This document shows positions 20,329-30,656 of a stretch of 64,000 nucleotides of DNA, in pieces (the stretch's first letter is position 1; the number at the start of each line of letters is the position of its first letter). The notes beneath the pieces are model-generated. The model was given only the letters and a program-made list of their open reading frames with translations, was not told the origin of the DNA and did not search any database. A program made the translations under genes and the position numbers. Source of the DNA: Minisyncoccota bacterium (lineage in GTDB: Bacteria; Patescibacteriota; Minisyncoccia; Phycocordibacterales; Phycocordibacteraceae); the NCBI GenBank assembly GCA_041664265.1, contig JBAYLD010000004.1:33470-97469 (forward strand). Direction: 5' to 3'.

Positions 20329-21105
20329 ATGAGCATCATCTTCTTCGACACCGAGACCACCGGCAACGGCGACAAAGATCGCCTCTGCCAGCTCGCTATC
20401 AAAGAGCGATATGTTGACGAGCCGCTGGTCAATGCGACCTATAAGCCGCCGGTGCCGATCTCGATCGAGTCGATGGCGATCCACCATATCACCGAGCGGA
20501 TGGTGGCGGGGCGGTCGGCGTTTAAGGACGCGCCAGAATACGAGAGCGTGAAGGATCTTTTTGAGAACAGCGAGACGATTGCGGTCGCGCACAACGCGAC
20601 CTTCGACATCGCGATGCTCGCGCGCGAGGGCATCACGCCCAAGCAGACCATCTGCACCTACAAGGTCGCCTACGCGCTCGACCCGAGCGACACCCTGCCC
20701 AATTATCGGCTCCAATATTTGCGCTACCTGCTTGATCTCGACGTCGAGGCCGAGGCGCACGACGCTTGGGGTGACGTGCTGGTGCTCGAAGCGCTCTTTG
20801 AGCGGCTTGTGGCGAAGATGAAGGAGCGCCACGGGACCGAAGAAGCCGCGCTCGCCGCTATGCTCGCGATCTCGGCGCAGCCCTTGCTCTTTACCACGCT
20901 GCGTTTCGGCAAATATAGCGGGAAGCGCCTGGAGGACATCGCGAAGACCGATCGGAGCTACCTCGAATGGCTCCTAGCCGAGAAGAAAAAATCTCCGGCA
21001 GGAGAGGAGGATTGGATCTATACGCTGGAGTATTACTTAAAGCCGCAGTCGTCAGACGCCCCGCCGATTACCGCATCGGAGCATGAATCCCGTAGTAGAA
21101 TTTAG
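20329..21105 (+). CDS. DnaQ-like DEDDh 3'-5' exonuclease fused to an ExoX-C-like domain
   Basis: Exo I FFDTETTG, Exo II AHNATFD, Exo III HDAWGD. The C-terminal domain carries FGKYSGKRLEDIAKTDRSYLEWL (DUF3820-like). Confidence 0.75.
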   Translation: MSIIFFDTETTGNGDKDRLCQLAIKERYVDEPLVNATYKPPVPISIESMAIHHITERMVAGRSAFKDAPEYESVKDLFENSETIAVAHNATFDIAMLAREGITPKQTICTYKVAYALDPSDTLPNYRLQYLRYLLDLDVEAEAHDAWGDVLVLEALFERLVAKMKERHGTEEAALAAMLAISAQPLLFTTLRFGKYSGKRLEDIAKTDRSYLEWLLAEKKKSPAGEEDWIYTLEYYLKPQSSDAPPITASEHESRSRI

Positions 21106-21113
21106 GTTTGGTT

Positions 21114-21410
21114 ATGTTCTACAACTACGTACTACAGAGTAAGAAAAATAATGAATTCTATATTGGGTATACTACCGACCTAAAAAGGAGGTTAGCAGAA
21201 CATAACCGAGGGTTAAATCCTTCGACCAAGCGATATATGCCGTGGCAAATCATCTACTACGAGGCTTGTCTAAACGATGCAGATGCTAAAAGGCGAGAAG
21301 GGTATATGAAAACGACCCAAGGTGGTAGATTATTGAAGAGAAGATTGAAAGAGTTCTTATATGAATCGAGGTCGAAGGATTTAACAAACCTAAATTTCAC
21401 TACAGGATGA
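21114..21410 (+). CDS. GIY-YIG nuclease family protein (UPF0213-like). AT-rich.
   Basis: YVLQSKKNNEFYIGYTTDLKRRLAEHN matches the GIY-YIG core. A local GC drop is visible. Confidence 0.7.
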   Translation: MFYNYVLQSKKNNEFYIGYTTDLKRRLAEHNRGLNPSTKRYMPWQIIYYEACLNDADAKRREGYMKTTQGGRLLKRRLKEFLYESRSKDLTNLNFTTG

Positions 21411-21805
21411 ACACCTACGACACCTATCAAACATTGATCAAACCCTCGTGGGCGCCGCCCGCATGGATCTTCGGCCCGGTGTGGACTCTGCTCTATGTGA
21501 TCATCGCGATCACTTTCGGCATGATCTTTTATCGGGCGTTCATCAAGAAGGATTTGCCCAAGCTGGTCGCCCTGCCGTTCATCCTCAACCTCGTCTTCAA
21601 CTTCTCCTTTACCTACTTCCAATTTACCCTCCAGAACTACGCCCTCGCGTCGCTCGATATCCTGCTCGTCCTCGGCACTCTCATCTGGGGGATGTCTAGC
21701 GTCTGGCGCCGCGCCCGCTGGATCGCACTCGCCAACATCCCGTATCTGGTGTGGGTAAGTTTTGCAACAGTTTTGCAACTGACGGTGACGTATCTGAATT
21801 GGTAG
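21407..21805 (+). CDS. tspO: TspO/MBR family membrane protein, shorter than usual
   Basis: KPSWAPPAWIFGPVWTLLY signature. Confidence 0.7.
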   Translation: MNTYDTYQTLIKPSWAPPAWIFGPVWTLLYVIIAITFGMIFYRAFIKKDLPKLVALPFILNLVFNFSFTYFQFTLQNYALASLDILLVLGTLIWGMSSVWRRARWIALANIPYLVWVSFATVLQLTVTYLNW

Positions 21806-21833
21806 CTTAATTATCTTGCTATAGTATTTCGTA

Positions 21834-22493
21834 ATGGGACTGGCTATAAAGAATCTCCCCACGCACGAGCGTCCGCGCGAGAAGCTTATCGCGAAGGGTG
21901 TGGGGAACCTTACTGATAAAGAGCTGCTCGCCATCCTTTTGCGCACTGGTAGAACAGGGAGGAGTGCGATCGATATCGCCGAGAGCATTCTCGCGAAATA
22001 TCCAAAGAAGGAGATTCTGAACATTTCGTTTGCCGATTTAAAAAAGATGAATGGCATCGGCGCAGACAAAGCATGCACACTTCTCGCAGCGTTTGAGTTC
22101 ACAAAGCGTGTACTCGATGTGCAGAAAGGCGGTCGGCCAATCATTGAGAACACCGAACAGGCACTCGCACAGCTTCACGACATCCGCAATCATAAAAAAG
22201 AACACTTCGTCGCGCTTTACCTCAACGCGCGTAACGAGCTCATTCATCGAGAAGATATTTCTGTCGGCACGGTAAACGCAAGTATCGTGCATCCACGGGA
22301 AGTGTTTGCCCCTGCGCTCGAACACAACGCCACTGCGGTGATCGTCGCCCACAACCATCCCTCCGGCTCGGCCGAACCTTCTCCAGAAGATCATGAAGTT
22401 ACTACGCGTCTCAGGGAAGCAGGGAAGCTACTCGGTATTTCGTTCGTTAATCATCTGATTGTCACAAAAGATAGCAATTCAGCCGTATTTTAG
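21834..22493 (+). CDS. radC: RadC-like JAB/MPN domain protein
   Basis: HHH-like N-terminus and JAMM motif HNHPSG..P.S..D. Confidence 0.85.
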   Translation: MGLAIKNLPTHERPREKLIAKGVGNLTDKELLAILLRTGRTGRSAIDIAESILAKYPKKEILNISFADLKKMNGIGADKACTLLAAFEFTKRVLDVQKGGRPIIENTEQALAQLHDIRNHKKEHFVALYLNARNELIHREDISVGTVNASIVHPREVFAPALEHNATAVIVAHNHPSGSAEPSPEDHEVTTRLREAGKLLGISFVNHLIVTKDSNSAVF

Positions 22494-22556
22494 GTCATAA
22501 AAGTTATACACCTATTGGGTTAACAAATATTGCGTTCTGTGCTAGGATAGGATACC

Positions 22557-22877
22557 ATGGAAGTGGACTGGAGAAACGAGAGTGACCGCACGCGAGTTGA
22601 AAAACTTGCGCGCAAGAATCGGGTCACGGAGCGACGAATGCAACGTCTCGTGGCCGCGAAGAACTTCCTCGATCTCCAGCTTCCAGCCAATGGTCGCGCC
22701 CATTTTTTAAAAAGAGAGTACGAAGGGTACTTTGCTCTCGATCTGGAAAGTAAGACTCGGGCACATCGTCTCATCTGCAAACCGGCGGGCGATTTTGAAA
22801 AGAAGGGAGGACAATACGTCAAAGAGAGTATTACCAAGATAGAGATTATAAAAATAGAAGAGGATTACCACGACTAA
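22557..22877 (+). CDS. higB: HigB-like toxin of the RelE/ParE superfamily
   Basis: C-terminal ...IEEDYHD and LKREYEGYFAL resemble HigB. It lies immediately upstream of a HigA-like HTH gene, in the usual toxin-first order. Confidence 0.6.
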   Translation: MEVDWRNESDRTRVEKLARKNRVTERRMQRLVAAKNFLDLQLPANGRAHFLKREYEGYFALDLESKTRAHRLICKPAGDFEKKGGQYVKESITKIEIIKIEEDYHD

Positions 22878-22878
22878 C

Positions 22879-24024
22879 ATGATTCACCGTAGCACCAAAA
22901 GTACCGGCTGGCAGCCCACTGCACTCGTTCACCCCGGCGAGCACCTTCTCGATTTCCTAGAGGAGAGTGGTATTTCGCAGGCTGAGCTTGCGGCACGAAC
23001 GGGTATTTCAAAAAAAGCCATCAATGAGATCGTAAACGGTAAGAGTCCCATTACGCAAAACACCGCCTTTAAACTGAGCAAGATTCTCTCGGTGTCTCCA
23101 GAATTCTGGATAAACCTACAGAGTAATTATGATCTGGCGCTTGCACAGAACGCAGAGTGTCAAAGGCTCGAGGGCGAGGCGGTCGCACATGCGCAAGATT
23201 TTAAGGAAACATATCAGGAACTTGAGAGGCGCGGCTTTGTGCCGGCATGCAGATGGGCAAAGAAAAACATTCTTGAGATTACGCGGAATCTCCAGCACTT
23301 TTTCGCCGTTGATTCTCTAGCGTATATTGCCGAAGACACTATGGAGTTTGCCTTTCGCAAATACAACCGAAAGAACGTAAATCAGTACACGCTCGCCGCC
23401 TGGGTACAACTCGGGAAGATCCAGGCCAAGCTCGTCGAGGCGAAGTCTTTTGATAGGGAGAAATTGAAATCGGAGTTACCGAAAATTAAGTCTTTGTCTC
23501 GCAAGGACTGGAAGGAATACGCGCCTGAGCTGGAGAAATTACTCGCGGACTGTGGCGTAGTGCTTGTTCTCGCACCTCGATTTACGCATGTGCCGGTACA
23601 GGGCGCGACGCACTGGATAGAGAGCGAGAGAGTTCTCGTGATGCTTAACACAGAGCATCAGTATGAAGACCGTTTCTGGTTCAGCTTATTTCACGAACTT
23701 GGGCATGTGCTTCTGCACGGTAAGAAAGATGTGTATGTCGACTTCGATAAAGACGGCGAAAAGACGGAAGAAGAAAAAGAGGCAGACGCATTCGCACAAA
23801 AGTGGCTTATTCAGGATCTAGACGAATTCTATGCCCTACTTAAGAAAACGGCGGATCTGGAAGGTTCTGTCAAGAAGATCGCAGATATAAATGGTGTTTC
23901 AGAAGCAGTCGTCGCTGGGCGCATTACGCACGATCATGCTACGACGCAGAGAATCTACGCGCTTATGAGCCCTTTCCAAAAAGAGAGAATCGAATACTCA
24001 AATATTACCTTCAATAACGCATAA
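22879..24024 (+). CDS. HigA-like XRE-family HTH fused to an ImmA/IrrE (COG2856) Zn-metallopeptidase domain
   Basis: N-terminal HPGEHLLDFLEESGISQAELAARTGISKKAINEIVNGKSPIT...PEFWINLQ matches the HigA HTH. The C-terminal HEXXH motif reads FHELGHVLLH. Confidence 0.7.
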   Translation: MIHRSTKSTGWQPTALVHPGEHLLDFLEESGISQAELAARTGISKKAINEIVNGKSPITQNTAFKLSKILSVSPEFWINLQSNYDLALAQNAECQRLEGEAVAHAQDFKETYQELERRGFVPACRWAKKNILEITRNLQHFFAVDSLAYIAEDTMEFAFRKYNRKNVNQYTLAAWVQLGKIQAKLVEAKSFDREKLKSELPKIKSLSRKDWKEYAPELEKLLADCGVVLVLAPRFTHVPVQGATHWIESERVLVMLNTEHQYEDRFWFSLFHELGHVLLHGKKDVYVDFDKDGEKTEEEKEADAFAQKWLIQDLDEFYALLKKTADLEGSVKKIADINGVSEAVVAGRITHDHATTQRIYALMSPFQKERIEYSNITFNNA

Positions 24025-24028
24025 ACGT

Positions 24029-24220
24029 ATGGACACCTGCAAAAAGTGCGGAAGTAAGAATGTGATGGGAGTCGAGTACAGTTGGGACAGTCCGGAGCAT
24101 TATGACGGTGTGAGCGAGGTGGAGTGCCGCGACTGTGATGCCCGCTTTGGCCGTTGGAGCGGCAAAGAGCTGACAGAAGGCGAGGCAGAAAAAGCATCTG
24201 CACGCTTTGCGGTACAATAA
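24029..24220 (+). CDS. Small Zn-ribbon protein (CKKC...CRDC)
   Basis: Four Cys in a C-x2-C...C-x2-C arrangement. It is tightly packed between the HTH-ImmA gene and hsdR. Confidence 0.4.
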   Translation: MDTCKKCGSKNVMGVEYSWDSPEHYDGVSEVECRDCDARFGRWSGKELTEGEAEKASARFAVQ

Positions 24221-24271
24221 TCTTCATGAAGCACGAACTTTTTGAGCAGGTGAAGAAGGTGTTGGAGAAGG

Positions 24272-26641
24272 ATGAAAGATATGACTGACCCAAACCTCTC
24301 AGAGCGCGATATCTGCACGAAGTACATCACTCCGGCACTCGTGGCGGCAGGGTGGAATATCCAGACTCAAGTCAGAGAAGAATTGAGCTTCACGGCCGGA
24401 CGCATCAATATACGCGGTAAGACCATTTCGCGCGGAGAAAAGAAACGTGCCGACTATGTCCTGTACTATAAAAACAATCTCCCGATCGCTCTTATCGAAG
24501 CGAAAGATGCGAATCACTCGGTTGGTGACGGGATGCAGCAAGCGCTTGCGTATGCTGAAGCACTCGATATCTCGTTTGTCTTCAGCTCAAACGGTGCGGG
24601 GTTTCTGGAGCACGATCGATTGAAAACAGGAGGGGATATTGAACAGGAAATTGCTTTGGAGGCATTTCCGAGCCCGGGTGCCCTTTTTGAACGGTATCAA
24701 CACGGAAAGAATCTGGACGAAGAGGAACGCGATATCCTGCTACAGGAGTATTTCCAAGATGGATCCGGTCGTGGCCCGCGCTACTATCAGATCAATGCCA
24801 TAAATCGCGTGGTAGAAGCGGTCGCAAAGGGCCAGAACCGCATCATGCTCGTCATGGCGACGGGGACCGGCAAGACCTACACCGCATTTCAAATCATTTG
24901 GCGGCTCTGGAAGGCAAAAAAGAAACAGCGCATATTGTTTCTTGTTGATCGAACAGCGCTTGCAGACCAAACAAAGAACAGCGATTTTCGACATTTCGGC
25001 AATGCCATAACGAAGATTGATGGTCCGAAAGTTGATCCGGCCTACGAGGTGTATATCGCGCTCTATCAGGGGCTCATGGGTGGCGAGGAGACAGAGAAAT
25101 TTAAGCAATTTTCACCGGATTTTTTCGATCTGGTCGTAGTGGATGAGTGTCATCGCGGTGTCGCGAGAGATGATGCACTCTGGCGCTCAATCCTCGACTA
25201 CTATGCGAGCGCCACGCATATCGGCCTTACGGCAACTCCTAAGGCAGCTGACGATGCGAATAATTTTGAATATTTCGGCGCGCCTATCTACACCTACTCC
25301 CTCAAGCAGGGGATTGAAGACGGCTTCCTTGCGCCGTATAAAGTCATCCGATACATTTTAGATAAAGACGAATGGCGGCCCGATAGTATGGTGCGCGACA
25401 CGAGTGGCAACCAGATCGAAGATCGCATTTATACCACCGCAGACTACGACACGAAGCTCGTTATAGATGCGCGTGCCAAGCTCGTTGCCGCGAAAATCGT
25501 TGAGTTCATGCGCGAAACCGATCCGATGCAGAAAGCTATCGTTTTTTGTGTCGATCAGGCTCACGCTGAGCGGATGCGCGAAGCGCTCGTCAACGCGAGT
25601 GGGGAATATGCGGCCCAAAATAGCCGCTATGTCGTGCGCATCACCGGTGATGATACCTACGGCAAGCTTGAAATAGATAACTTCACGAATCCCGAATCTC
25701 CGTATCCAGTCATCGCCACTACGTCAAAGTTGCTCTCTACTGGCGTCGATACCCAGACAGTAAAGCTCATCGTGCTTGATGCCCCGATGAACTCTATGAC
25801 CGAATTTAAACAAGTCATCGGCCGAGGCACGCGCATCAACGAGCAGTACGGTAAGTACTACTTCACCATCATGGACTTCCGTAACGTCACACGGCTTTTC
25901 GCCGATAAAGACTTCGACGGTGAGCCGGTCGAGAGTTACGAACGCAAAGTTGAGGAGACACTGCCGATCAAGCGCATTATCGAAGAAGAAACCGTCTCTG
26001 AACGTGAGATCATCGAGCATAATCCGCAAGAAGAAATCCTTATTGATGGAACCGAAGAGAATCCGAAGCCGAAGAAGATACATATCGCTGATGGGGTTAC
26101 CTTCGACGTGATCCATAAGCTGGTGCAGTATATTGATCCAGCGACTGGTAAACTCATCACCGCGTCGCTCCAGGACTACAGTAAGAAGGCTGTCTGTGGT
26201 ATGTATGCTTCGCTTGAAGACTTCCTCAACCGATGGAACGCTACCGAGCGCAAAGAAGTGATTATCAGTGAGCTCGCCGAGCGTGGCGTTATCTTTGATG
26301 AGCTTCGCGCAGAGGTAGGGCAGGAGTGCGACGTGTTCGACCTCATCACACAGGTCGCTTTTGGCAAGAAGCCGCTCACACGGAGTGAGCGGCTGAAGAA
26401 CGTGAGGCAGAGCGACTACTTCGCCAAATATGAGGGTCAGGCACGCGAGATTATTAATCACCTCTTAGAGAAGTATGCCGAGTATGGCATTACTGCCATA
26501 GACGACATCGGTGACTTGCAGGTCTCGCCCTTTAGTGATTATGGCGCGCCGGTTGAGATCGTGGATGGTATCTTCGGCGGTCGCGAGCAATATTTACAAG
26601 TTGTTCGCGAGATCGAGCGGCAGTTGTATAGTGCTTCGTAG
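24272..26641 (+). CDS. hsdR: Type I restriction enzyme R subunit
   Basis: HsdR N-terminal nuclease region, helicase motif I VMATGTGKT and motif II VVDECHRG. Confidence 0.9.
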   Translation: MKDMTDPNLSERDICTKYITPALVAAGWNIQTQVREELSFTAGRINIRGKTISRGEKKRADYVLYYKNNLPIALIEAKDANHSVGDGMQQALAYAEALDISFVFSSNGAGFLEHDRLKTGGDIEQEIALEAFPSPGALFERYQHGKNLDEEERDILLQEYFQDGSGRGPRYYQINAINRVVEAVAKGQNRIMLVMATGTGKTYTAFQIIWRLWKAKKKQRILFLVDRTALADQTKNSDFRHFGNAITKIDGPKVDPAYEVYIALYQGLMGGEETEKFKQFSPDFFDLVVVDECHRGVARDDALWRSILDYYASATHIGLTATPKAADDANNFEYFGAPIYTYSLKQGIEDGFLAPYKVIRYILDKDEWRPDSMVRDTSGNQIEDRIYTTADYDTKLVIDARAKLVAAKIVEFMRETDPMQKAIVFCVDQAHAERMREALVNASGEYAAQNSRYVVRITGDDTYGKLEIDNFTNPESPYPVIATTSKLLSTGVDTQTVKLIVLDAPMNSMTEFKQVIGRGTRINEQYGKYYFTIMDFRNVTRLFADKDFDGEPVESYERKVEETLPIKRIIEEETVSEREIIEHNPQEEILIDGTEENPKPKKIHIADGVTFDVIHKLVQYIDPATGKLITASLQDYSKKAVCGMYASLEDFLNRWNATERKEVIISELAERGVIFDELRAEVGQECDVFDLITQVAFGKKPLTRSERLKNVRQSDYFAKYEGQAREIINHLLEKYAEYGITAIDDIGDLQVSPFSDYGAPVEIVDGIFGGREQYLQVVREIERQLYSAS

Positions 26642-26644
26642 GCC

Positions 26645-28087
26645 ATGGTTGACATTCAGAACATCATCAAGGCGATTCAGGACATCATGCGCAAGGATGC
26701 GGGGGTCGACGGTGATGCCCAACGTCTGTCACAACTCGTCTGGATGCTCTTCCTCAAGATTTTCGATGACCGAGAAAAGAATCAAGAATACATAGACCCC
26801 ACGTATCGCTCGCCGATACCCGAGAAGCTTCGCTGGCGGAGCTGGGCAGCTGATTCAGAGGGCATGACGGGCGAAGAGCTCCATTCTTTTATCGACAAAG
26901 AGCTTTTCCCGGCGCTCAAGAATATCCCACTGGGCAATGTTGAATCATCGGCTGGCATCGTGCGGGGTGTTTTTACCGACTCTTATAACTATATGAAGAA
27001 CGGTACGCTCATTCGGCAGGTCGTGAACAAGATTCAAGAGATCAATTTCAATAAGAAAAACGATCGGCATCAATTCGGCGATTTGTACGAGAAATTGCTT
27101 AAAGATCTCCAGAGTGCCGGGAACGCGGGCGAGTTCTACACGCCGCGCCCGCTCACGAAATTTGTGGTGGAGATGATGGCTCCCATGCTTGGTGAAAGTG
27201 TCCTTGACCCTGCTTGCGGCACCGGCGGCTTTCTCATAAACGTGCTCGAATACGTTCGAGCACACGAGGTCAAGACGGCCGCAAATGAGAAGAAACTTGA
27301 AGCATCGGTACACGGGGTGGAGCTGAAGCCGCTCCCGCACCTCCTCGCGACTACCAACTTCATGCTGCACGATGTGGAAATTCCTTCTACGGTGCGACGT
27401 GATGATATGCTCGCCAAGCCACTGACACAATATGGTCCCAGTGATCGTGTAGATATCATCGTGGCAAATCCACCATTCGGTGGGATGGTGCAGGATGGCA
27501 CTCAAGCTAACTTCCCGAGTGAGTTACGAACTAAAGACACCGCGTTACTCTTTCTCCAGCTGTTCATTCATCTCTTGAAGCCACAAGGCCGAGCTGGAAT
27601 CGTATTGCCCGATGGCGTTCTCTTTGGTGAGGGCGTTGCGAGCAAGATAAAAGAGAAGCTTCTGACCGAATGCAATGTGCATACGATCGTGCGACTCCCG
27701 CAGGGTGTTTTCAGTCCCTACGCGGGCGTGAACACGAACCTAGTCTTCTTCGAGAAGGGAACTCCCACAAAAGAAATTTGGTACTACGCGATGCCGCTCC
27801 CAGAAGGCTTGCGACAATACAGCAAGGGCACGCCGATTAAAGATTCTGAATTTGAACCCGTGAAGAAATGGTGGGGTGGGGTAGAGCGCAAGGGGCGCAA
27901 GGCGAGCGAGTACACATGGAAAGTCTCCATCGATGATATCCGTGCTCGCAACTACAACCTCGACTTCAAGAACCCCAACGCCCCCGCCGCCACCGAACAT
28001 AAAACTCCGAAAGAACTTCTGGTCGATATTGAAAGTAAGGAAAAACAAATCTCCGCGCTGTTGGGGGAGATGAAAAAGGAGATATGA
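26645..28087 (+). CDS. hsdM: Type I restriction-modification N6-adenine methyltransferase subunit
   Basis: VLDPACGTGGFL and NPPFGG motifs. Confidence 0.9.
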   Translation: MVDIQNIIKAIQDIMRKDAGVDGDAQRLSQLVWMLFLKIFDDREKNQEYIDPTYRSPIPEKLRWRSWAADSEGMTGEELHSFIDKELFPALKNIPLGNVESSAGIVRGVFTDSYNYMKNGTLIRQVVNKIQEINFNKKNDRHQFGDLYEKLLKDLQSAGNAGEFYTPRPLTKFVVEMMAPMLGESVLDPACGTGGFLINVLEYVRAHEVKTAANEKKLEASVHGVELKPLPHLLATTNFMLHDVEIPSTVRRDDMLAKPLTQYGPSDRVDIIVANPPFGGMVQDGTQANFPSELRTKDTALLFLQLFIHLLKPQGRAGIVLPDGVLFGEGVASKIKEKLLTECNVHTIVRLPQGVFSPYAGVNTNLVFFEKGTPTKEIWYYAMPLPEGLRQYSKGTPIKDSEFEPVKKWWGGVERKGRKASEYTWKVSIDDIRARNYNLDFKNPNAPAATEHKTPKELLVDIESKEKQISALLGEMKKEI

Positions 28088-28779
28088 AAAAATCATTTAA
28101 GACAAAATTCAATATTTTCTTACGGAAAGAACCGAACAGAGCTTCTGAAGGCGTCTTGATTCCTGCCGGAACAAAAATTGAAGGTCTAGAAACGGTTAAA
28201 GGGGAGAGTGTAGAAGATATAGACAATTGGTACAAAAACGAAAATGGATTGTATTTTTGGGCCGGTGGTGTAGAAGAAATTACATCAGAAAGCCCGAGCT
28301 TTATTTGGCCAGTTGAGTCAATTTACAAAAAAATAACAACTCCCTTCTCAGAAAAATGGATTCTCAATTTGAAGAAAAAACACACAGGTGTAGATATTGC
28401 CGTGCCAGTTGGTAAAGAAGTTTACGTAGTCGCAGACTGTGTTGTTAGAAAAATTGGCTGGCTCGATCAGAAAAAAACGATGGCTCAATATGTGACGGTT
28501 GAGCATGATTCCAGTGGATACTGCTCTGCTTATTTGCATATTGATCCTGCGGTAAAAAAGGATGACAAACTAAAAGCAAAAGATATCGTTGGGCATACGG
28601 CCCAATTGATAGACATGGGTTCTCACCTGCATTTCAATTTTTGGAAAGGGACATATAACGACTTACTTTGTCGTGGGGCACTCCCGTCTTTAGAATTTGC
28701 AGGAACAATACATCCCGTGAGTGACCCTGCTTTCCCTTCAAATTTTGTGGATCCCATGTCAGTCTTGTATCTCGATTAA
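28084..28779 (+). CDS. M23 (LytM/lysostaphin-type) metallopeptidase with an SH3b-like N-terminal domain. No signal peptide. AT-rich.
   Basis: HTGVDIA (HxxxD) and GSHLHF (HxH) motifs. The ATGA overlap with the hsdM stop indicates translational coupling. Confidence 0.65.
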   Translation: MKKSFKTKFNIFLRKEPNRASEGVLIPAGTKIEGLETVKGESVEDIDNWYKNENGLYFWAGGVEEITSESPSFIWPVESIYKKITTPFSEKWILNLKKKHTGVDIAVPVGKEVYVVADCVVRKIGWLDQKKTMAQYVTVEHDSSGYCSAYLHIDPAVKKDDKLKAKDIVGHTAQLIDMGSHLHFNFWKGTYNDLLCRGALPSLEFAGTIHPVSDPAFPSNFVDPMSVLYLD

Positions 28780-28783
28780 GGGT

Positions 28784-29536
28784 ATGACCTGCCTAACAAA
28801 AAAATCAAAAGAGATAAGTTCTCTTGATTTAAGTAATCAGAAGGGAATGATGGACTTTTTACGAGCACCAACGGTAAAGATCGCAGAATTTATTACCGGC
28901 GTTCTTGTTTCAGAACAAAAGGATTGGAAATTTTCGGCAGGCAAACTTGTACAAGCTGCTATAAAAGGAAATCTACTTACTCAACTAGGGCGAGAAATAG
29001 AAAAATATCGCAATGAAGGTAGGATTAAAGAGGATTATTTCGCGACTCATAAAAATCAAGCCTCGCTCTATGAGTTATTGAAGTTTTTAGACGAAGAAGT
29101 ACCGGACGAAGAACTTTTTAAAGCAATTAAATCTATTTTCTTTGCAGGTATAAGTGTCGATTCAGATGCGCAAAACGAGGCTTTAGCATATGAATTTTTG
29201 CAAACTGCAAAAAAATTGAATGGAACAGAGATTCTGATTCTAAAAGCCAATTTTGATATTGTGCGAGGTCACCCAATAGCCGAAGTACAAAAACGTATGG
29301 AAGACACAAGTAATAACCACAATAGAGGACGCTGGCGCAAATTTATTTCGATTCAGATGGGTTACAGCGATTTTGATGCCGTAGTACGTAAATATGAGGC
29401 TCATCTTGAAGAGTTGTGTCTGATTACACCTCGCAATGAAGATAACCGATTTGTCAATGATTATGAACCTTCTCAAAAATTCCGACTTACTGAAATTGGA
29501 TTTAAATTTTGTGAGTTTATGACCAAATATGAATAG
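28784..29536 (+). CDS. Hypothetical protein, possibly HEPN-like. AT-rich.
   Basis: Contains RKYEAH (Rx4H). Its end overlaps the hsdS start (ATGAATAG). No confident family assignment. Confidence 0.45.
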   Translation: MTCLTKKSKEISSLDLSNQKGMMDFLRAPTVKIAEFITGVLVSEQKDWKFSAGKLVQAAIKGNLLTQLGREIEKYRNEGRIKEDYFATHKNQASLYELLKFLDEEVPDEELFKAIKSIFFAGISVDSDAQNEALAYEFLQTAKKLNGTEILILKANFDIVRGHPIAEVQKRMEDTSNNHNRGRWRKFISIQMGYSDFDAVVRKYEAHLEELCLITPRNEDNRFVNDYEPSQKFRLTEIGFKFCEFMTKYE

Positions 29537-30656
29537 TGTGCGAACAAAAAAACTAGGGGAGGTTTTGGAGAAGATTCCGAAGATTGTCGGTGTGCTTACA
29601 AAAGATTATCTAGACGAGGGAATGTTTCCAATCGTAGACCAAGGGCAATCGTTTATTGCCGGTTATACCAATGATATTGCAAGTGTTTACTGTGGAGAAT
29701 TGCCAGTAGTTATTTTTGGCGACCATACACGGGCAATGAAGTTCATCGATTTTCCGTTTGCTATTGGTGCGGATGGAACAAAGATTCTGAAACCGACAAG
29801 CGAATTTGATGCAAAATTCTTTTATTATTTTTTACTGTCGATAAATATTCCAGCCAGAGGTTACGCGAGGCACTACTCGTTACTTAGAGAGTTTAAAATC
29901 CCATTGCCGACGGTGGGGGAGCAGAAGAAAATTGTGGCGAGGATAGAAAAGCAGTTTGCGAAGATTGATGAGGCCGCATGCCTGCGTGCAGAATCGCTTG
30001 CTTCGACTGAACAAATTTTTCCTGCTATCCTCCACGAAATTTTTTCCTCTGCCGAATCAAAAGAGTGGGGATTAGTGAGCATCACCAACGAGGCTTTCTT
30101 TCAAGAAGGCCCGGGCATCCGTTCATATGAGTATGAAGACGACGGCTATCCAATGATTAATGTTCGTTGCGTTCAGGATGGGCGTATCAATCTCACGGGC
30201 GGTAAGGCAGCGTCGCGCGAATTGGCGGAGGGAAAGTGGAAACATTTTCAAGTGCAGGTGGGGGATATTCTCTTCACCACATCTGGCACCATAGGCCGTG
30301 TTGCGGTCGTTCAGGAGTATGACCTGCCACTCCTTATGAATACGAGCGTCGTTCGTTTTCGCACGCTTGACGAAAGTCGGCTAGCAAATGATTTCTTGTA
30401 TTGGGTTCTTCGGTCGCCTGATTTTGTAAACGGGCTCAAAGTGCAAAGTACGGGTTCAGCTCAGCAAAACGTCGGGCCGTCGCACATTAAGAAAATGCAA
30501 ATTCCCCTGCCACCCCTCGCTGAGCAGAAGGAGATTGTGAAGAAGCTCGATGCCTTGTCTGAGAAGGTTCGGGCGCTGCAGGAGCTTCAATCCGCCCAAG
30601 CCACCGACCTGAAGGCTCTCAAGCAGTCCATTTTGCATGAGGCGTTTTCTGGATAA
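29529..30656 (+). CDS. hsdS: Type I restriction-modification specificity subunit
   Basis: Two target-recognition domains separated by conserved LP(T/P)(V/L)(G/A)EQKKIV repeats. Confidence 0.85.
   Translation: MNSVRTKKLGEVLEKIPKIVGVLTKDYLDEGMFPIVDQGQSFIAGYTNDIASVYCGELPVVIFGDHTRAMKFIDFPFAIGADGTKILKPTSEFDAKFFYYFLLSINIPARGYARHYSLLREFKIPLPTVGEQKKIVARIEKQFAKIDEAACLRAESLASTEQIFPAILHEIFSSAESKEWGLVSITNEAFFQEGPGIRSYEYEDDGYPMINVRCVQDGRINLTGGKAASRELAEGKWKHFQVQVGDILFTTSGTIGRVAVVQEYDLPLLMNTSVVRFRTLDESRLANDFLYWVLRSPDFVNGLKVQSTGSAQQNVGPSHIKKMQIPLPPLAEQKEIVKKLDALSEKVRALQELQSAQATDLKALKQSILHEAFSG

Follow-up and report, generated by a model that had tools for sequence, protein, structure and literature searches.

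A 64,000-nucleotide (nt) stretch of contig JBAYLD010000004.1 from a Minisyncoccota bacterium (hereafter the window), a member of the candidate phyla radiation (CPR), carries two adjoining genes, A and B, upstream of a type I restriction-modification (RM) operon. The two genes probably form a toxin-antitoxin (TA)-type module of the class that combines a RelE-superfamily toxin with a fused Xre-COG2856 protein, sister to the two-gene core of the anti-phage system PD-λ-2. In the module, B would act as repressor and antitoxin and release its partner through proteolysis. This reading is supported by the identities of the two proteins, their pairing, a regulatory region of their own, the defence context in which they are found, and the precedents of PD-λ-2 (Vassallo et al., 2022; PMC9519451) and of the operons described by Makarova, Wolf and Koonin (2009; PMC2701414).

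An earlier annotation made from the letters alone (the first-pass annotation) had placed three open reading frames (ORFs) at 22557–24220, ahead of the RM operon: A, B and a small zinc-ribbon gene. All three were found as described, immediately 5' of hsdR (Table 1). Conserved homologues of all three occur in other genomes, A having 17 clusters, B more than 811 and the zinc-ribbon protein at least 96, and on these comparative grounds they are real genes and not chance ORFs.

A divergent HigB and a HigA-peptidase fusion

Two well-separated regions of B gave clear domain matches. Its N-terminal part hit the HigA antitoxin model TIGR02607 with 78.9 bits (cut-off 47.7), in a gene lying directly downstream of the toxin gene as expected of a HigA, and profile matches among PDB entries included VapI, Pseudomonas aeruginosa HigA, GraA, and Proteus vulgaris HigA, with E values of 1e-13 to 1e-20. 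Residues 250–349 (nt 23626–23925) matched Peptidase_M78 (PF06114) with 44.7 bits (cut-off 22), and this above-gathering match contains an HExxH motif followed downstream by ExEAxxFA. Matches to CapP were obtained too, both for the structure 7t5t (profile match, E = 2.8e-5) and for the PADLOC model capP (3.5e-9). Conservation is concentrated where a zinc peptidase would need it: H272, E273, H276, and E299 do not vary among 35 diverse homologues, and in the six orthologues linked to an A gene the whole HELGH motif is invariant together with E301, A302, D303, F305, and A306 of ExEAxxFA. In the structural model of B (mean pLDDT, the predicted local distance difference test, 88.4) the helix-turn-helix (HTH) spans residues 19–70 and is followed by a long helix (74–117), a helical region (128–224), a three-stranded sheet (227–257), the HEXXH helix (263–280), and a helix bearing the glutamate (297–310). 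Taken together, the matches and the model predict that B is a true HigA HTH joined by a long linker helix to an intact M78 (ImmA/IrrE) zinc peptidase. The fusion of a HigA HTH with an ImmA/IrrE peptidase, as read in the first-pass annotation, is thereby confirmed: both models score above their cut-offs, the motifs are invariant, and the HEXXH, which might have lain outside any peptidase fold, falls within the M78 domain.

Gene A required a more indirect route. It had no match in Pfam, NCBIfam or PADLOC at E ≤ 1, no relevant relative among PDB sequences by phmmer or profile hmmsearch, and in PHROGs nothing beyond a weak match to a ‘toxin of TA system’ family (E = 0.004). Its close family consists of 17 clusters, drawn from metagenomes and metagenome-assembled genomes only, none with a Pfam domain; the invariant residues of this family include H49, D62, K66, R71, C74, K89, and H105, with Y104 nearly invariant. 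Searching 1.84 billion representative proteins with the A profile yielded 90 matches at E ≤ 1e-3, and 45 of the 76 relatives that were scanned matched PF05015 (HigB-like_toxin), the best with E = 1.2e-9. A itself did not reach a gathering-score match to the PF05015 model. Aligned through these intermediates, H49, R71, and D103-Y104-H105 of A fall on H54, R73, and D90-Y91-H92 of P. vulgaris HigB, which we take to be the active-site residues of that toxin; the HigB sequence used was checked against 4mct_B, and PDB entries list HigB variants ΔH92 and Y91A. Relative to HigB, A has an insertion of about 16 residues ahead of the last strand.

The AlphaFold2 model of A (pLDDT 88.8) has the topology β-α-α-β-β-β-β, that is, the N-terminal strand, two helices, and antiparallel sheet of the RelE/ParE superfamily. 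On the strength of this fold, of the homology traced through intermediates, and of the shared motif, we assign A as a HigB: it is a divergent one, forming a branch of PF05015 within the RelE/ParE superfamily, with its putative catalytic residues intact and apparently competent in catalysis. The suggestion that the 106-aa protein is HigB-like has held up in each of these respects, including the RelE fold on which it depended. The toxin of this lineage escapes current family models.

The region ahead of A carries putative regulatory elements of the pair's own. An operator palindrome had been thought possible between 22494 and 22556. We found there a conserved dyad at 22506–22526, imperfect in the window as a palindrome. 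Six A-B loci retain it ahead of A, with A proteins that share only 50–75% identity, and in one of them (L012) it takes the form of the perfect palindrome TTAACCTAtTAGGTTAA. An automatic repeat finder run over 22440–22620 returned no inverted repeat, and the dyad emerged only by comparison across loci. The sigma-70-like promoter site that it overlaps was the sole match of the consensus scan in 21700–24500; the count is not above shuffle expectation, and the weight of the site comes from its being kept across loci. The motif is a putative operator; a dyad over the −35 box is what one would look for if the promoter, like those of HigBA operons, were under autoregulation. In some CPR loci a short unannotated ORF lies between the flanking gene and the promoter motif of A (46 aa in L001–L006, at 4806–4946; 88 aa in L012–L014).

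Pairing, mode of action and polarity

Pairing of the two genes was observed from both sides. Each of the six CPR settings in which the A family was found has a gene of 374–383 aa, encoding HTH_3 plus M78, directly 3' of A. Starting from B, we sampled 80 loci from GTDB species genomes (L022–L101), and a HigB-like ORF was immediately 5' of B in 74 of the 77 with room upstream, across many phyla. Relatives of B, often named ‘HigA family addiction module antitoxin’ at NCBI, are encoded in at least 592 species-representative genomes of many phyla, as well as on 56 plasmids and in a few phages. Annotated plasmids carry the same combination, a ‘killer suppression protein’ or ‘RelE/ParE family toxin’ together with a ‘HigA family addiction module antitoxin’. 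Genes 3' of B vary among the sampled loci (SIR2-like, patatin, NurA, metallophosphatase, hsdS, and housekeeping genes), with no conserved third gene. By these counts the pairing is obligate, and we consider it likely that A and B constitute a self-contained, mobile two-gene module of TA type.

Some of these loci have neighbours of other kinds. Individual B genes adjoin a SIR2-like gene (L030), a patatin gene (L071) or a NurA gene (L095). On plasmid pRaL13f of Rhodococcus aetherivorans (L183, 1–1977), a RelE/ParE plus HigA::M78 pair sits beside a divergent ThiF adenylyltransferase gene and a multiubiquitin-domain gene, with a DNA methyltransferase gene downstream.

In the mode of action that we favour, the HigA domain of B would bind the dyad and autorepress the operon, and B would also keep A inactive. 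A trigger, for example phage infection or DNA damage, would switch on the peptidase domain, which would cut B itself or a partner and so break the complex. The freed A would cleave ribosome-bound mRNA, leading to growth arrest or abortive infection.

Several points weigh against this scheme. Profile comparison of A with the HigB and RelE families, a check proposed in the first-pass annotation, succeeded only in part: the transitive link to PF05015 was established, but A has no direct match to any HigB/RelE model, and when the A profile was compared with P. vulgaris HigB by hhalign, the probability was 6%, too weak to be used alone. Moreover, in the sole relative that has been tested, PD-λ-2, overexpression of B alone was toxic, co-expression of A rescued the cells, and defence depended on a third gene as well (PMC9519451). 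Given this result, the roles of A as toxin and B as antitoxin cannot simply be assumed, and they may be wrong. The polarity could be the reverse, with B a growth-inhibiting effector, acting by proteolysis of a host target or by transcriptional interference, and with A serving to inhibit it instead of being an RNase toxin. Such a reversal would agree with the PD-λ-2 phenotypes, with the invariance of the peptidase active site, and with the full-length match of the window B to the PADLOC model PD-Lambda-2_B (7.1e-34, residues 23–357 of 381, profile positions 64–381 of 402). However, the window A, of PF05015 type, belongs to a different HigB family from PD-λ-2A (PF09907), and its family keeps every HigB catalytic residue unchanged, a conservation that one would hardly look for in a protein that only inhibits; the PD-λ-2 evidence, in turn, comes from overexpression. 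We regard reversed polarity as a possibility to be reckoned with, yet a rather doubtful one, and retain A as the candidate toxin and B as its candidate antitoxin. That the fusion is the toxic partner in PD-λ-2 was an unexpected result for this class.

Restriction genes, the zinc-ribbon gene and the Fic slot

Restriction systems of several kinds neighbour the A-B pair in CPR. In the window and in L015 the pair precedes type I RM genes; elsewhere it is found within a type I operon with the order hsdM, 88-aa ORF, A, B, NYN, hsdS, 152-aa ORF, hsdR (L012–L014), downstream of a BanI-type type II system (L008–L011), near GmrSD and a UvrD/PD-(D/E)XK helicase (L007), and between TspO and ExoX with no RM system (L001–L006), so that type I, type II, and type IV restriction are all represented among its neighbours. 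Across phyla, hsdM or hsdR occurred within 5 kb in 15 of the 80 sampled B loci, and several pairs are embedded as hsdM, HigB, B, hsdS, hsdR (L045, L050, L053, L096). The enrichment for RM neighbours is genuine and of the sort that cargo of defence islands typically shows, and the RM operon is a neighbour of the A-B module, not a component of it.

The first-pass annotation went further and suggested that the fusion may control the RM genes downstream; in this reading B would be a damage- or phage-responsive self-cleaving repressor of the type I operon. The layout of the window lends itself to this idea: every gene from A through hsdS is co-directional, the gaps are short (1 nt between A and B, 4 nt between B and the zinc-ribbon gene, and 51 nt between the latter and hsdR), and no terminator-like site was found on the + strand between A/B and hsdR, so that read-through from the A promoter into hsdR is possible. 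B-type pairs, as seen above, also lie often within type I RM operons. Against it stands the conserved motif, which is present once in the 64-kb window, upstream of A, with no second copy near hsdR; a scan of the window with this motif made no regulated target of B evident beyond the promoter of the pair itself. The position of the pair relative to RM genes (upstream, inside, downstream, or with no RM genes at all, as in L001–L006) is moreover variable, which disfavours a dedicated role as RM regulator. Finally, sister loci have a Fic gene in the same slot before the same RM genes, an arrangement that interchangeable inserted cassettes explain better than a dedicated regulator does. Control of the RM operon by B is in our view unlikely, and this part of the annotation was not upheld.

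The zinc-ribbon gene, which had been listed together with the pair, turned out to have a usual partner of its own. Its family comprises the at least 96 homologous clusters mentioned above, all from CPR sources, CPR-wide and tightly conserved. Its resemblance to the Lar restriction-alleviation family is weak though consistent: the window protein scored 24.5 bits against the Lar model PF14354 (cut-off 28.6), and 34 of 46 family members had sub-threshold PF14354 matches, more than matched the model of any other zinc-ribbon family. The gene was absent from all 80 sampled B loci and is missing in four of the six CPR A-B contexts. In a separate sample of 80 metagenome loci containing it (L102–L181), 73 had room upstream, and in 55 of these a SoFic-like Fic gene of about 350–400 aa lay directly 5', usually 0–25 nt away. 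Considering long contigs, Fic was immediately 5' in 22 of 25 cases, and type I RM genes were nearby in only 6 of 25. Judged by gene order, the zinc-ribbon gene belongs with Fic or with the position, not with the A-B module. The Fic and zinc-ribbon genes look like a two-gene module in CPR, seemingly undescribed, although no literature search was aimed at it.

Placed 4 nt after B, in an order RadC, A, B, zinc-ribbon that recurs in L015, the gene could conceivably be the third component of a three-gene system, in the role of PD-λ-2C, given that defence by PD-λ-2 requires a third gene. We deem such a system highly improbable in view of the counts just given for B loci and CPR A-B contexts, of the usual upstream partner being Fic, and of PD-λ-2C being an unrelated PF14350 protein of about 358 aa. 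As an analogue of PD-λ-2C, the zinc-ribbon gene was rejected on account of this lack of relationship, its absence from the B loci, and its partnership with Fic.

Comparison at the level of gene order took in the window (21834–24272) and L122, L150, L119, L110, and L015. Fic-type loci and A-B loci have close counterparts: RadC, Fic, zinc-ribbon, hsdM in L122 corresponds to RadC, A, B, zinc-ribbon, hsdM in L015, and Fic, zinc-ribbon, hsdR, hsdM in L150 corresponds to RadC, A, B, zinc-ribbon, hsdR, hsdM in the window. The A-B pair thus appears to occupy the slot usual for Fic, in an apparent exchange of cassettes at one position. RadC was seen directly or closely 5' of both cassette types (L015, L023, L040, L122, L132). 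The loci considered for the pair of Fic and zinc-ribbon genes also included L016 and L018–L021, and some type I RM operons contain this pair (hsdS, Fic, zinc-ribbon, hsdR).

One might go on to propose that CPR type I RM loci have a fixed docking site, often with RadC 5' and the Lar-like zinc-ribbon gene plus hsdR/hsdM 3', which accepts alternative toxin cassettes, usually a SoFic-like Fic gene and in the window the A-B pair, the zinc-ribbon protein being a common adaptor that links the cassette present to the condition of the restriction enzyme. Such coupling would be akin to that of PrrC, which EcoprrI keeps latent. The A-B pair would then guard the RM system instead of being a TA module in its own right. 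We give this proposal little credence. The pairing of Fic with the zinc-ribbon gene, and its exchange for A-B, is nonetheless the most interesting by-product of the analysis and may merit a study of its own.

As for the rest of the locus, the GC profile of the window drops from 55–60% in the upstream core genes to 47–52% from about 21 kb onward. Within the type I operon, the two genes between hsdM and hsdS (28084–29536) have a GC content of 37–41%, against 50–52% in the flanking RM genes; because this is much below their surroundings, their composition suggests a recent insertion into the operon. Upstream of RadC, genes for an ExoX-like exonuclease, a GIY-YIG protein (100 aa), and TspO occupy 20329–21805. 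In L001–L006 the A-B pair is likewise flanked by TspO and ExoX genes, which are differently arranged there, and no RM system is present. Structured RNAs and tRNAs were searched for as markers of an integration site, and none was found.

Table 1. Coordinates of the genes, domains, and regulatory elements considered (positions within the 64,000-nt window).
Feature	Position	Strand	Remarks
RadC (JAB-domain) gene	21834–22493		directly upstream of A; RadC-A spacer 63 nt
Operator-like motif ATACACCTATTGGGTTAACAA	22506–22526	.	imperfect dyad ACCTA-T-TGGGT centred on 22515; overlaps −35-like box
Promoter-like site, TTAACA, 17 nt, TAGGAT, upstream TG	22520–22548	+	consensus scan; sigma-70-like
Gene A (HigB-like)	22557–22877	+	106 aa; C-terminus ...IEEDYHD
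Gene B (HigA-HTH::M78 fusion)	22879–24024	+	381 aa; HPGEHLLDFLEESGISQAELAARTGISKKAINEIVNGKSPIT near N-terminus; FHELGHVLLH at residues 271–280
HigA-type HTH of B	22927–23151	+	residues ~17–91
HELGH zinc-binding/catalytic motif of B	23692–23706	+	H272, E273, H276; read from sequence
E299-x-E301-A-D-x-F-A motif of B	23773–23796	+	downstream of HELGH
Zinc-ribbon gene	24029–24220	+	63 aa; CxxC...CxxC (CKKC...CRDC)
hsdR	24272–26641	+	Pfam scan; context only
hsdM	26645–28087	+	Pfam scan; context only
M23-peptidase-like gene	28084–28779	+	231 aa; inside low-GC insert between hsdM and hsdS
ORF with no assigned function	28721–29536	+	271 aa; inside low-GC insert between hsdM and hsdS
hsdS	29529–30656	+	Pfam scan; type I RM operon spans 24272–30656

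Relation to described systems

The architecture of the A-B pair is already described, and the pair in the window is a divergent copy of a widespread module. Novelty of the combination of the fusion with a RelE toxin is not supported: besides its earlier description and testing (below), the arrangement was counted in no fewer than 592 species genomes and turned up on 56 plasmids. Makarova, Wolf and Koonin (2009; PMC2701414) reported fused Xre-COG2856 proteins, frequently in operons with RelE and PIN toxins, and put forward the same hypothesis, that the protease inactivates the repressor or antitoxin. Those operons have the order and the domains of A-B, a RelE-superfamily gene followed by an Xre HTH::COG2856/M78 fusion with HEXXH, and their locations include plasmids, prophages, and islands; the Microscilla plasmid pSD15 cited there is among the tblastn matches. 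There is no essential difference from this class, save that the window copy comes from CPR and that its toxin is too divergent for current family models. The present results extend the class (RelE/HigB toxin plus HigA::M78 fusion) into the reduced genomes of CPR, and put numbers on it, both for pairing (74 of 77 loci) and for proximity to type I RM (15 of 80 loci).

A member of the same type was tested in 2022 as PD-λ-2 of Escherichia coli ECOR42, an anti-phage system acting by abortive infection (Vassallo et al., 2022; PMC9519451). It consists of a HigB-like A (PF09907, HHpred probability 99.8%), a B with HigA-HTH and M78, and a C that is the PF14350 Beta_protein already mentioned. Like PD-λ-2, the window has a HigB-like gene first and a HigA-HTH::M78 gene second. 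Unlike it, the window A is of PF05015 type and has no match to PD-Lambda-2_A or to PF09907; in typical pairs of other phyla, too, PF05015-type partners fail to match PD-Lambda-2_A. There is also no PF14350 third gene among the scanned flanking ORFs of the window, where B is followed by the 63-aa zinc-ribbon gene, which has no PADLOC match, and none among the downstream genes sampled at other B loci. By sequence comparison, the window pair is placed as a PF05015-type sister lineage of the PD-λ-2 A-B core, and not as PD-λ-2 itself.

Two further groups of systems share parts of the architecture. In HigB-HigA of P. vulgaris/Rts1 (PF05015 plus TIGR02607) and in GraT-GraA, the canonical HigA has about 100 aa and no peptidase domain, and P. 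vulgaris HigB, unlike the window A, is without the insertion before the last strand, A also escaping direct detection by PF05015. In ImmR/ImmA, CapH/CapP, and DdrO/IrrE, an Xre HTH and an M78 metallopeptidase are present, as in B. There, however, repressor and protease are separate proteins, which control a mobile element, a CBASS (cyclic oligonucleotide-based anti-phage signalling system) operon, or a repair regulon. The window pair does not have the separate repressor, cut by a separate M78 protease, of ImmR/ImmA- and CapH/CapP-type switches: in B the HTH and the peptidase form one polypeptide, which is paired with a RelE-type toxin.

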